A stretch of DNA of 64,000 bases from the sequence record PZ019086.1. One strand, given 5' to 3'. Position 1 is the first letter of the stretch. The number at the start of each line of letters is the position of its first letter. The position numbers and the translations under genes were made by a program. The notes under the pieces are model-generated. The model was given only the letters and a program-made list of their open reading frames with translations, was not told the origin of the DNA and searched no databases. Source of the stretch: a phage. Shown piece by piece: positions 1-50,820 of the stretch.

Positions 1-583
1 CCGCAACACATGGAATGTTTTTAATACTAAAATAAGGAGTAACAATACGGAATAATGACTTCAGTGATTTAGCACGAGTCATATCTGCCACAGATTTTTC
101 ATTCAAGGCATCTTCCGTTTCTTTCTTAGAAGCCATATTACCGATTGAGTCGATGAATACAATAACTTTTTCACCGCGCTCAATAGCTTCAAGCTGATTC
201 ACCATATCAATTTTCAGCTGTTCAACTGACTGGATTGGTGTATGAATTACTCGTTCCGGATCAACTCCCATGGATCGCAAATAAGCTGGAGTAATACCAA
301 ATTCGCTATCATAAAATAGACATACCGCGTCAGGATATTTGTTCAAATACGCCGCAACCATAGTCAAAGACATATTTGATTTAAAGTGTTTAGAAGGACC
401 TGCAAAAATGGTTAAACCAGACTGCATACCACCATCAATCGCACCAGAAATAGCGATATTAAGCATTGGAATTTTTGTACGGATTACATCCTTTTCATTA
501 AAGAATTTAGATGTAGTCAGTTCAGCAGTCATTTTAGAAGTGGAAGCTTTAATCAAACGGGATTTTAAATCTGCAATAGACAT
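1..583 (-). CDS. uvsX: UvsX RecA-like recombinase, N-terminal part (gene runs off the window start)
   Basis: Minus-strand frame with ATG at 583..581; translation MSIADLKSRLIKASTSKMTAELTTSKFF...GPSKHFKS... matches T4 UvsX N-terminus from memory; absent from ORF track because truncated at the edge. Confidence 0.85.
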   Translation of the reverse strand, partial: MSIADLKSRLIKASTSKMTAELTTSKFFNEKDVIRTKIPMLNIAISGAIDGGMQSGLTIFAGPSKHFKSNMSLTMVAAYLNKYPDAVCLFYDSEFGITPAYLRSMGVDPERVIHTPIQSVEQLKIDMVNQLEAIERGEKVIVFIDSIGNMASKKETEDALNEKSVADMTRAKSLKSLFRIVTPYFSIKNIPCVA

Positions 584-629
584 TCATTTTTTCCATAGGC
601 ATCATTATATTTTCCTCACTGGTTAAAGA

Positions 630-660
630 TAGAGTAATTATAACACAATAAATTTAGGCA
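630..660 (-). promoter_or_regulatory. Putative middle/early promoter upstream of uvsX (extended -10 TGTTATAAT, possible MotA-box-like TGCCTAA at about -30)
   Basis: Minus-strand reading TGCCTAAATTTATTGTGTTATAAT about 45 nt upstream of uvsX ATG; approximate. Confidence 0.3.
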
Positions 661-1509
661 TTAATCGACTGCTATTGGATGAATAGCATTAAACTTATGA
701 AACGCTTCTGATTTTTCTTTGCGTGAAACACACATGCGAAGAACCTTTAATGGCTCGTCTTCTTCACCCAACGATTTTCTCTTTTCGATATTCGATGTTT
801 TCCAACGAGCTTGCTCTGGAAACTCTCTATTGATTTGCTCAAGAGCTCTATTATGTTTTGAATTACTACGAATTGAACTACATCCGCCAGGAGCTTGTGC
901 TTTTCCAGATACAACCAGATATTTGAACAAGGCCAAATGCGGATAACCTTGATTAATTAAATTGAGAAATGCATACATATCTTCGCATAAATCAATTTTT
1001 CCATACCCAATTTGTTCTGTCGTGAGTTTTCCAAGGTCATACCATGTATTCGTGAATCCATATGAATTTTCACGATAATTACCCCAAGATGAAGTAATTT
1101 TAAAAATTGGTAGACGAGCATGGCCATGATAATACCCACAATCCATGGCATCTTCAACGTATTGAATCAATTCATAGAACTGTTCACGAGTTAATTGATT
1201 AATTTTATCTACGCAGCGACGATCATCTTTCTTTCGCATTGAACTCATACGAATAGTAGTATCATCATCAATCATCCAAATTCGTTGACCTGCATACATA
1301 TCAGTAATTGCTTTACGAGTACCAGCAATTCCATTAACATCATCAGGAATAGTTATAATTTTAGCTCTAGATCCGTAAGCGTCATAATAAGCTTTTTCTT
1401 CATGTTCACGTACTACAATATGAGGTTCATAATCAGTCGGAAACATATCAAGGGCAGAAACTGCCGCTACGCGTTGATAGCTTGGAATTACGAATTGAAT
1501 CATTTCCAT
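661..1509 (-). CDS. GT-A type glycosyltransferase at the beta-gt locus (candidate hydroxymethylcytosine-glucose modifying transferase, not T4-type beta-gt)
   Basis: 282 aa; VIPSYQR start and DxD motif RIWMIDDDTTIR typical of GT-A/GT2 enzymes; sits between 42 and uvsX where T4 has beta-gt (351 aa) but does not resemble T4 BGT as I recall it. Confidence 0.6.
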   Translation of the reverse strand: MEMIQFVIPSYQRVAAVSALDMFPTDYEPHIVVREHEEKAYYDAYGSRAKIITIPDDVNGIAGTRKAITDMYAGQRIWMIDDDTTIRMSSMRKKDDRRCVDKINQLTREQFYELIQYVEDAMDCGYYHGHARLPIFKITSSWGNYRENSYGFTNTWYDLGKLTTEQIGYGKIDLCEDMYAFLNLINQGYPHLALFKYLVVSGKAQAPGGCSSIRSNSKHNRALEQINREFPEQARWKTSNIEKRKSLGEEDEPLKVLRMCVSRKEKSEAFHKFNAIHPIAVD

Positions 1510-2240
1510 TCACCATTATAATCTTTTTTCACAATATGAGTTTCGCCAGTATTCCACCAATGATCAACCAAGTAAAAATGACGAGAATATACATGAAGAC
1601 TTCCAACATTCCATATAATAGAACCTGCTTTATACTGACGAGTTGAATCACCTGCATTCAAATCAGATACTAATTTATCTAGTACGTATTTTTGCCATGC
1701 ATAATCATTACGGAATCCGAAGACTACGTCATTTGAACGCATGCTTACTACTGCATTGACTTTCTTATCACGAATCAGGTACTGTACTGTATTCGTACAC
1801 ATGAAATCTGACATACCATCTTTATTGTAGTCAAACTGCATGGATGGACGAGTATAAATCATGATACCGCGTCGAGAATCAGGATTTTGACCAAGTTCAG
1901 CTAAACACATATCATATTGGGCATAGTTATCTTCTGACCAGATGGCCCAACCATAATTCGAATTAATTTCGCCTTTAGAAGATGCTACCTGTTGCCAAAT
2001 CTTCGGTGTTTCACCTGGAATATCTTTAACAAACAAACTTTTAGATTTATACCATTCAAGTTCACGCTGAATGTATTCATCATTAAGAGCGCCAAAAATA
2101 AAAGGTTCATCTGCTACAAATGATGCACCAATAATTTCAATAGTTTTAACACCAGTTTTATCAATTACGAAATCTTTTTCCTTTAATGCAAGACCCAAAT
2201 CAAGACGGATTTCTTCAACTGTCATATAATCGTTAATCAT
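1500..2240 (-). CDS. 42: dCMP hydroxymethylase
   Basis: 246 aa, same length and position as T4 gp42; thymidylate-synthase-like fold features. Confidence 0.85.
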   Translation of the reverse strand: MINDYMTVEEIRLDLGLALKEKDFVIDKTGVKTIEIIGASFVADEPFIFGALNDEYIQRELEWYKSKSLFVKDIPGETPKIWQQVASSKGEINSNYGWAIWSEDNYAQYDMCLAELGQNPDSRRGIMIYTRPSMQFDYNKDGMSDFMCTNTVQYLIRDKKVNAVVSMRSNDVVFGFRNDYAWQKYVLDKLVSDLNAGDSTRQYKAGSIIWNVGSLHVYSRHFYLVDHWWNTGETHIVKKDYNGEWK

Positions 2241-2393
2241 TTAAACCTCAATTGATACATTCATATTTAACTTGTAACAGTAATAAACCCCAACCTATAA
2301 TAAGTGTCGGAATCATAAGAGGAACCGTTACGCTATAGTATATACTTATTATAATCATCAAGATTAAAAGCAATACTGCTAAAATTTTGCTTT

Positions 2394-2645
2394 TCATTCC
2401 TTCTCTCTGATGATAATTACTTGATTCGGTTGTGCAGATTTTTTAGTTTCACCTGCAATTGACCAAATAAATGTAATAAACCAACCAATAATTGACCAGT
2501 TAAACAGTAAAGATGTGAAAAAGATTCCTACTGTCGATTTTGACCCACGCATCAAGGCGATGAACCATGGAAGCATGTATATAATAATAGCCAACACGCC
2601 TGAAACTAAAACCATAAAAATTGAACCTGCTACTAAAGTTTCCAT
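2394..2645 (-). CDS. imm: Immunity to superinfection membrane protein
   Basis: 83 aa, two hydrophobic helices, position between 42 and 43 as in T4. Confidence 0.8.
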   Translation of the reverse strand: METLVAGSIFMVLVSGVLAIIIYMLPWFIALMRGSKSTVGIFFTSLLFNWSIIGWFITFIWSIAGETKKSAQPNQVIIIREKE

Positions 2646-2652
2646 GTTTTCC

Positions 2653-3033
2653 TCACTTAGTCAAATTTTTTACACATGAATTATAAGAATTCACTACATA
2701 CTCCATCGGAGCATTTTTACCAGTACGCCATTGATAATTATTAGCCCAATTAGCCCAAAGTCCAGCGCAATAGTTTTCAATTTTTTCTTCGCGTGTAATT
2801 ACATCCGAATTACGATATGCTTGAGCAGATTCGTCTGGACGAATAGCTTCGTCAAAATTCGCCTGCATTTGTTCTACTGTCTGCTTTGGAGCTTCTTTAT
2901 AACATTTAACATTAGGATTATAAAATTTACTTGAACAGTTTACAATTTTTCCTACATCAGACTGATTTACTACTGATCCTTGAGCTACACAACCAGTAAG
3001 ACCTAATGCAATAACCAAAATAGCAATTTTCAT
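2653..3033 (-). CDS. Small lipoprotein (imm.1 position)
   Basis: Start moved to in-frame ATG at 3033 (MKIAILVIALGLTGC lipobox) with GGAGA RBS; the ORF-track N-terminal extension overlaps the upstream promoter. Confidence 0.65.
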   Translation of the reverse strand: MKIAILVIALGLTGCVAQGSVVNQSDVGKIVNCSSKFYNPNVKCYKEAPKQTVEQMQANFDEAIRPDESAQAYRNSDVITREEKIENYCAGLWANWANNYQWRTGKNAPMEYVVNSYNSCVKNLTK

Positions 3034-11730: not shown

Positions 11731-12585
11731 TCACAATGAAGAAAATTCTTTAACTAAAGCCTGTAATGAAGCCTCTATTGGATATCCATTCTTAACTAAC
11801 ATTTTCCTAAACATCACATGTTTAGGACGATTATATGATATCCACAATTCATACAATTTATCTTTATTATCCCAATGATAGCCTTTTCGTCGAGATGCTA
11901 TATGAGCTTTTCTAATCTCCGGATTTTTCCAACTAGCGGCTACTGAATTTGATATAGCTATTTTATATTCAGGTTTTGATAAAGCAACACGAACAGCCTT
12001 TTGGTGTTTAATTTTATTTTCTTCGTTATTAAACCATTCCCTTGAAGCCATTGAAATTTTTTGTTTTGTTTTAAAATTATTTAATCTTTCTTTGTTATCT
12101 TTCCTATTTTTTGCTACTGAAAAGTATTTTAATGCTCTTTCTCTAGCAGCATTTCTATTTTGTGGATTTGAATAATATTGTTGAAGCCTTTTTGATATTG
12201 TGTCACTTACATCTTGTTTTATAAAACTATATTCAGCAGCTATTAAATCAACTTCGGCTAAAGATAAATTTTTATATGTTTTTCCTGACATCATTCTATT
12301 TAAAGCATTTAGCATTTTTCCATTTTTACCTTTTGCTAATAAGAAATGTGCTTTAAAATGATTAAAATGACTTAAATTAACTAAATTCCATGTAGATTTT
12401 AAATATTCAGGAAATATTGATTTAGGAAGCACATGGTGTGCTTCCGTTTTACCTGGAGTTTTAACAGTTGAATTCATAGAAATAAAATTAATGTAAGACT
12501 TGGCGTCTTCTTCACTCAACGCTAATTTTTCAACTAATTCCTTTATTAAAAATTCATCATTAATGTCAAGTTTAAAATTCTTCAC
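11731..12585 (-). CDS. HNH-family endonuclease-like protein (second mob-like gene), apparent GTG start
   Basis: 284 aa; HNH motif EAHHVLPKS...NLVNLSHFNHFKAH; basic repetitive C-terminal region; inserted immediately upstream of 46. Confidence 0.65.
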   Translation of the reverse strand: MKNFKLDINDEFLIKELVEKLALSEEDAKSYINFISMNSTVKTPGKTEAHHVLPKSIFPEYLKSTWNLVNLSHFNHFKAHFLLAKGKNGKMLNALNRMMSGKTYKNLSLAEVDLIAAEYSFIKQDVSDTISKRLQQYYSNPQNRNAARERALKYFSVAKNRKDNKERLNNFKTKQKISMASREWFNNEENKIKHQKAVRVALSKPEYKIAISNSVAASWKNPEIRKAHIASRRKGYHWDNKDKLYELWISYNRPKHVMFRKMLVKNGYPIEASLQALVKEFSSL

Positions 12586-14208: not shown

Positions 14209-14226
14209 AAAGGGCCGAAGCCCTTT
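14209..14226 (-). terminator. UUCG-loop hairpin at the alpha-gt stop
   Basis: aaagggccgaagcccttt; approximate. Confidence 0.5.
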
Positions 14227-15427
14227 ATTTTGTAATAATGTCAAACTGTTCTTTAAAGCAGAAGCTTGAATCTTGATGCTGATACAAAAATTCATAAGCT
14301 TTTTCGCGTTCACGGTCATAAAGAGCTCGGTCAGATGACAGTTCTTTAATACGCTCAAATGTTGATTCCATGTCATTTTCATCAAACCAAACGATACCGC
14401 TATCGTGTGAAATTAACGGAGTATTATCAACACGGAATTTTAAATTTTCGCCAGTAGATTTCCAAAATACCGGAATTGTTCCACATGCACCAAGCTCGAG
14501 ATGAGTGTATTCTAAAGAACGCTGTAGATATTTTTTGTCCAACTTACTCAGCTGATAACCAAATCCGGATTTACTCATGCGTTCAAGCATTTCGCTATTT
14601 ACATAACGGTCGAGAATTTGCGTTGGCAAATTAGGAGCAATTTTAATTTGGTCTACTTGATGAAGACGATAATACTCGTATGGAATTCCTTTTTCTTTAA
14701 TAGGAATGAACGCTGGAGAACGTTCCAGACCTTCCATAATAGTACTTAGTCCTGCAGGTTTAAGATGTTTTTCGTGAAAATCAAACATCTGATAAAAACC
14801 TTTCCATGTAGTCGTACGACCAATCCAACGGTTGATATTCATGTTAATTTCAGAAACATCTTTCCAGTAGGTTGATCGAACCTTCGCAATATCCATAGGA
14901 GGCTGAAAGTTATATACGGTCGGTGCTTCTTCAATATCATCAAACAGAGAAACAGTTTCCGGATACCATTCTTTCATCAAAACTTTATTAAAGTCACCAT
15001 TATCAGAATGGCTAAAAATAACATCAGCTCGACGAACAGTTTCTTCTAATCCCAAATTTCGACGCAAAGAAAGAGAAGAATGGTCATGCTGATAAACTAC
15101 AACACGAACCGAAGGTTTAATGTTATCAATAATTTTTTTATAGTTATTAATTGTGTCTTCTTCGACTGAAGTAGCAGGAACTGAATTGATAACTAGAATA
15201 TCACAATCATTTACCAGCTTAAGCGTTTTATCGTATTCTTTTGCCAATAAAACCGGAATTGAAAATGATTTATAATCATGCGCGCAATTACGAGTAAATG
15301 ATTTATCTTTAGCATAAACCAAAGTTACTTCATGACCATTTTTAATAAACCAATCACGCTGCTCAAGAGAAAATTTAGTTACACCGCAACCTTCAAGACC
15401 TCGAGCCATAAAAATACATACTTTCAT
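14225..15427 (-). CDS. agt: DNA alpha-glucosyltransferase
   Basis: 400 aa; N-terminus MKVCIFMARGLEGCGVTKFSLEQRDWFIKNGHEVTLVYAKDKSF matches T4 AGT closely from memory. Confidence 0.9.
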   Translation of the reverse strand: MKVCIFMARGLEGCGVTKFSLEQRDWFIKNGHEVTLVYAKDKSFTRNCAHDYKSFSIPVLLAKEYDKTLKLVNDCDILVINSVPATSVEEDTINNYKKIIDNIKPSVRVVVYQHDHSSLSLRRNLGLEETVRRADVIFSHSDNGDFNKVLMKEWYPETVSLFDDIEEAPTVYNFQPPMDIAKVRSTYWKDVSEINMNINRWIGRTTTWKGFYQMFDFHEKHLKPAGLSTIMEGLERSPAFIPIKEKGIPYEYYRLHQVDQIKIAPNLPTQILDRYVNSEMLERMSKSGFGYQLSKLDKKYLQRSLEYTHLELGACGTIPVFWKSTGENLKFRVDNTPLISHDSGIVWFDENDMESTFERIKELSSDRALYDREREKAYEFLYQHQDSSFCFKEQFDIITK

Positions 15428-50532: not shown

Positions 50533-50820
50533 TTACAAAAGATTTTTAGCAATAATCTTGAGATGTGCCGCAGAAATGTGTTTAGCTTTAAACAACGCAG
50601 TTTCTTCAGCAGGAGAGATAATGATTGTAGCACCATCCTTTTTAGCAGACCACCCATCGCCTAGGTAAACAGTACCTTTGATTTCTTCGCCATCAACCAG
50701 ACTAATCATTGGTTTACCTTCTCGTCCTTTATTTGCTTTAATAACTTCAGAAGTAAGAGTAGCTTCGGTAATGGTAGAAACCGGGGTAGTTGTAGAAGTA
50801 AATTCTTTAAATGTTTTCAT
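50533..50820 (-). CDS. ipI: Internal protein I (capsid-targeted; in T4 an anti-restriction protein)
   Basis: 95 aa; MKTFKEFTSTTTPVSTITE targeting leader; matches T4 IPI closely from memory. Confidence 0.85.
   Translation of the reverse strand: MKTFKEFTSTTTPVSTITEATLTSEVIKANKGREGKPMISLVDGEEIKGTVYLGDGWSAKKDGATIIISPAEETALFKAKHISAAHLKIIAKNLL

Follow-up and report, generated by a model that had tools for sequence, protein, structure and literature searches.

The locus between gene 42 and uvsX

The 64-kb stretch of phage DNA analysed here (the window) carries on its minus strand an unbroken ORF at 661..1509, 282 codons long when counted from the first ATG, which is the 282-aa gene that the first-pass annotation had placed between gene 42 and uvsX. 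Upstream lies gene 42 (1500..2240, minus strand), assigned as the dCMP hydroxymethylase gene from its ORF, the annotations of matching records and a match to the thymidylate synthase superfamily. Downstream lies the 5′ part of uvsX (1..583, minus strand), recognised from its sequence and from annotations; the gene begins at 583 and is cut off by the start of the window. The gene between them, hereafter ggt (also ba-gt, or TAGT; beta-glucosyl-HMC-alpha-glucosyltransferase, see below), sits in the same slot in phages T2, T6, Geo and vB_Eco_CP (CP) when the record maps are compared. No match to the homing endonuclease gene segA was found between uvsX and ggt in the window, whereas T4 has segA at that position. 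Across the window as a whole, identity to Tequatrovirus genomes is about 96-98% at the DNA level and the window is identical to none of them; the best matches over 25 kb in the phage collection reach only about 96-97% DNA identity.

Two in-frame ATG codons could serve as the start of ggt, and the minus-strand letters at the gene 42/ggt junction read GGTGAATGGAAATGATT. The first ATG, at 1509, opens the longest ORF (282 aa) and directly abuts the motif GGTGA. The second (1503..1501) lies 6 nt after GGTGA and forms an ATGA overlap with the TGA stop codon of gene 42. At the position of the upstream ATG, two codons before 1503 and in frame, T2 and T6 have GTG, and the 280-aa form is the one annotated in the T2, Geo and CP records. 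Based on the overlap, the spacing from GGTGA, the GTG codons and these annotations, we conclude that translation probably starts at the ATG at 1503, which places the coding sequence at 661..1503 (minus strand, 280 aa). A scan of positions 400..2700 for promoters and terminators found no terminator and no excess of sites over shuffled sequence.

Two further minus-strand ORFs were observed in the window. A 49-aa, strongly hydrophobic ORF (2248..2397) takes up the 153-bp interval that separates gene 42 from imm, where Geo and CP carry an annotated 150-bp CDS ('Phage protein') and the T4 and T2 records have none annotated. Between genes 46 and 47, a 284-aa ORF (11731..12585) weakly matches T4 SegA (E = 0.006); at this position T6 has an 855-bp CDS, and in T2 the CDS is split and carries a note describing it as a homing endonuclease of the mob-like kind.

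Relatives, conserved residues and predicted fold of the ggt product

Alignment to the T2/T6 enzyme, which had been proposed as a check on the gene's identity, gave 275/280 identical residues for T2 (98% across all 280 aa, with both T2 records in agreement) and 273/280 for T6 (AP018814, 98%). The CP protein (OZ034683.1) is 99% identical, with four amino-acid differences, and that of Geo 97% identical. The sequence matches PHROG 842, 'beta-glucosyl-HMC-alpha-glucosyltransferase', over residues 2-277 (E = 8e-89), and residues 5-209 match Pfam PF20691 (TAGT) over profile positions 2-205 of 205, with 40.4 bits against a gathering cutoff of 27.5; NCBIfam has no model for ggt or alpha-gt. Together with the GT-A fold modelled below, these matches uphold the first-pass proposal of a T2/T6-type system that uses a GT-A enzyme unrelated to T4 beta-gt.

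Since a word-indexed homologue search gave just 11 matches, we judged residue conservation from an exhaustive search, which retrieved 327 TAGT family representatives at E ≤ 0.001, 143 of which were aligned. Twelve positions are at least 90% conserved among the 143 representatives (I6, P7, R11, R63, D79, D80, D81, D175, G186, G206, G207 and R212), and the window ggt carries the consensus residue at all twelve. Arg11, encoded at 1471..1473 (minus strand), belongs to the N-terminal IPSYQR motif and is Arg in 139/139 aligned representatives; T2 has His. The DxD motif reported earlier is a DDD at 1261..1269 on the minus strand (atcatcatc on the plus strand), residues 79-81 of the 280-aa form, and its conservation extends across the family, with D found in 141/143, 143/143 and 135/143 representatives at the three positions. 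Three substitutions, G13A, R92K and V101I, distinguish the window ggt from most close relatives, and none falls at a family-conserved position.

A structural model of the protein displays a GT-A fold in which DDD comes after a beta-strand formed by residues 74-79. Confidence in the model is only moderate: the mean pLDDT is 72, and four loops score below 50. A PDB sequence search with the ggt protein returned a chance match only (E = 0.75), there being no solved structure for any family member. In the model, DDD is the expected binding site for the metal ion and UDP-sugar of a GT-A enzyme.

Comparison of the window and T2 genes codon by codon revealed 34 synonymous and 5 non-synonymous differences, indicating that ggt is under purifying selection. 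With the frame intact, all conserved residues kept and a synonymous to non-synonymous count of 34:5, we rejected the reading of ggt as a pseudogene.

The predicted second glucosylation and composition of the DNA

The window also codes for an alpha-glucosyltransferase of 400 aa, alpha-gt (14225..15427, minus strand). Its product is 99% identical to those of T2 and CP and 91% identical to those of T4, T6 and Geo, so that alpha-gt exists in two allelic forms whose proteins differ by about 9%, window/T2/CP and T4/T6/Geo. The gene had been called T4-like, which holds loosely at 91% identity; more precisely it is the T2/CP allele.

In the established hmC pathway, gp42 supplies the hydroxymethylated nucleotide, alpha-GT glucosylates about 75% of hmC and the ggt product adds a further glucose in beta-1,6 linkage. 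By this scheme, gene 42 of the window would produce hm-dCMP, so that hmC would replace C in the DNA; alpha-GT would then place alpha-linked glucose on about 75% of hmC, giving the alpha-glucosyl-hmC that serves as acceptor for ggt. GT2-like GT-A enzymes are inverting. The ggt product would be expected to act as an inverting GT-A transferase with UDP-glucose and a metal ion held by DDD, and a beta linkage formed from UDP-alpha-glucose is consistent with inverting chemistry. The second glucose would be joined beta-1,6 to the first, yielding gentiobiosyl-hmC. From its 98-99% identity to the proteins of phages in which gentiobiosyl-hmC has been measured, we infer that the window ggt product uses UDP-glucose to add a beta-1,6-linked glucose to alpha-glucosyl-hmC in DNA.

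Published measurements reveal that phages carrying this pair of genes differ in the outcome. T2 DNA contains about 70% alpha-glucosyl-hmC, 5% gentiobiosyl-hmC and 25% bare hmC, and T6 DNA about 3%, 72% and 25%, respectively (PMC11078745; bioRxiv 10.64898/2026.02.25.707755). Ten Durham Tequatroviruses with alpha-GT and TAGT were analysed by HPLC/MS and formed two groups, with no beta-glucosyl in any (PMC13390438). CP and six other Durham phages have about one third 5-hmdC and two thirds alpha-gentiobiosylmethyl-dC, while Geo, EL and BGP have hmC, alpha-glucosyl and gentiobiosyl forms at about 1:2:2 (PMC13390438). The mono- to di-glucosyl ratio is not readable from sequence, as the T2 and T6 ggt products are both about 98% identical to that of the window, yet the two phages have 5% and 72% gentiobiosyl-hmC. 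As both transferases of the window are 99% identical to those of CP, whose DNA was measured, DNA of the CP/T6 type is predicted: in the virion DNA, gentiobiosyl-hmC most likely predominates, bare hmC makes up about one quarter to one third, mono-alpha-glucosyl-hmC is scarce and beta-glucosyl-hmC is absent.

Three other readings of the locus were considered. Only its position, in the slot that b-gt has in T4, suggests that the ORF might encode a diverged beta-glucosyltransferase of the T4 type. The first-pass annotation had seen no resemblance to the 351-aa T4 beta-gt, and we found none either: BLASTP of the window ggt against that protein gave no similarity (best E = 3.4), a tblastn search of the entire 64-kb window with T4 beta-gt returned nothing at E ≤ 10, and the PF09198 profile had no match in the window ggt. 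The protein is also 280 aa long as compared to 351 aa, and its modelled fold is GT-A, while T4 beta-GT has a GT-B fold (PMC13216743). For the 64 kb of the window, we rejected both a diverged and a relocated T4 beta-gt. A beta-gt in the part of the genome beyond these 64 kb is unlikely, as none was found outside the 42-uvsX locus in the Tequatrovirus records examined. Another specificity, by which the enzyme would use another sugar donor or act on bare hmC directly and so create a new modification, draws on the diversity of the wider TAGT family, which is also found with beta-GT or alone (PMC13216743), on the low identity (only 25-35%) of most of the 327 representatives and on the lack of a solved structure within the family. 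Given that the protein is 98-99% identical to those of T2, T6 and CP, with a full set of conserved residues and the same neighbourhood, we regard such a specificity as very unlikely.

The remaining alternative accepts the same orthologue but has it working weakly, as in T2, with about 70% mono-alpha-glucosyl-hmC and a few percent gentiobiosyl-hmC. T2 possesses both genes and reaches just 5% gentiobiosyl-hmC, its alpha-gt allele is that of the window (99%), and its ggt product is 98% identical to the window's. We nevertheless consider this outcome improbable, if less so than a changed specificity, because the residues unique to T2, H11 and S251, are absent from the window, where R11 and P251 are found, as they are in T6, Geo and CP. 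With R11 invariant in 139/139 representatives, T2 looks like a defective outlier, and CP, whose alpha-gt allele and ggt are each 99% identical to those of the window, measures about two thirds gentiobiosyl. The gene at 661..1503 is very probably an orthologue of T2/T6 ggt in a Tequatrovirus that possesses alpha-gt and, in the 64 kb of the window, no beta-gt, with DNA predicted to be of the T6/CP type.

The available alleles of ggt themselves vary. Residue 11 is His in both T2 records (L001:4283-5125 and L003:4286-5128) and Arg in the window, T6, Geo and CP, T2 ggt being the only copy examined with His in place of Arg11; T2 also has S251 where the window, T6, Geo and CP have Pro. Gentiobiosyl levels do not follow the alpha-gt allele: T2 and CP have the same one, with a low level in T2 and a high level in CP. 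His at an otherwise invariant Arg, together with the alpha-gt allele that T2 shares with CP (about two thirds gentiobiosyl), suggests that a weakened ggt could explain the low gentiobiosyl content of T2, and the difference between 5% in T2 and 72% in T6 could thus reflect a hypomorphic T2 ggt. More generally, we put forward only tentatively, as something rather less probable than its opposite, that in T-even phages the balance between one and two glucoses is set by the ggt allele rather than by alpha-gt. If true, the consensus allele of the window would lead to T6-like DNA, although the idea concerns T2 more than the window. The public T6 records each contain a different lesion in ggt. AP018814 (L004:4135-4974) has a 3-nt deletion that removes one of the three GAT codons of DDD. 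MH550421 (L005:2138-2980) has the full DDD and a TAG at codon 10, which accounts for its annotation as a shortened protein of 262 aa from a downstream ATG. Variation between laboratory stocks or errors in sequencing may account for these lesions.

Occurrence, defence and comparison with known systems

The chemistry dates from the 1960s. [quoted passage not shown] A tblastn search recovered ggt from 689 phage records, with an identity of ≥95% in 472, and copies about 65% identical occur in T4-like phages of Klebsiella, Enterobacter and Salmonella. In a 2026 survey, TAGT paired with alpha-GT or beta-GT was the rule, and alpha-GT occurred with beta-GT in only 6/753 genomes (PMC13216743). The first-pass annotation had described a beta-gt locus occupied by another transferase; that transferase is indeed there, but its presence is not unusual, as most Tequatrovirus phages have ggt at this locus and it is T4 that departs from the pattern (PMC13216743).

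The bearing of the gene on modification-dependent defence, also raised at first pass, is real and had already been demonstrated by deletion of ba-gt/g-gt in T6, which leaves about 75% alpha-glucosyl-hmC, increases sensitivity to Brig1 and opens the DNA to the BapA glucosidase (PMC11078745; bioRxiv 10.64898/2026.02.25.707755). Gentiobiosyl-hmC DNA of T6 resists the Brig1 glycosylase in vitro (PMC11078745), and BapA is unable to remove glucose from it (bioRxiv 10.64898/2026.02.25.707755). Gentiobiosyl DNA is still a substrate for enzymes of the GmrSD family such as BrxU (PMC13390438; PMC13216743). The gene, the enzyme activity and the consequences for defence are all already published, and none of these points is new. 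For phage biology and therapy, the window ggt predicts gentiobiosyl-hmC DNA without beta-glucosyl-hmC; its annotation should read beta-glucosyl-HMC-alpha-glucosyltransferase (ggt / ba-gt), with the start placed at 1503. The 95-aa product of an ORF at 50533..50820 (minus strand) is closely homologous to T4 internal protein I (PDB 2JUB, E = 1.5e-44). IPI, a packaged protein, has been described as a GmrSD inhibitor (PMC13216743), and its homologue in the window bears on the fate of the phage against glucose-dependent restriction.

Compared with known systems, the window ggt resembles T4 b-gt (PF09198, PDB 1JG7) in the slot that it occupies downstream of gene 42 and in the predicted use of UDP-glucose to form a beta linkage that diversifies hmC (PMC13216743). 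T4 beta-GT differs in its GT-B fold (PMC13216743), as opposed to the GT-A fold modelled for ggt, in its acceptor, which is bare hmC and not alpha-glucosyl-hmC, and in the presence of segA between b-gt and uvsX in T4. With the PF20691 TAGT (TET-associated glycosyltransferase) family at large, the window ggt has in common IP..R, R63, DDD, D175, G186, GG206-207 and R212; identity is only 25-35% for most members of that family, which derive from metagenomes or unrelated phages, whereas the window ggt belongs to a tight Tequatrovirus clade. The likeness to T2 and T6 ggt comprises 98% identity over the full 280 aa, the position between 42 and uvsX, the ATGA coupling to gene 42 and the alpha-gt partner. 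T2 differs by five substitutions, among them H11 where the window keeps R11, and T6 (AP018814) by six substitutions and one indel, with DD in place of the full DDD of the window; both have GTG where the window has an extra in-frame ATG two codons upstream. A further close system, with HPLC/MS-characterised DNA, is that of the Tequatrovirus CP, whose ggt and alpha-gt are each 99% identical to those of the window and whose gene order is the same (PMC13390438).
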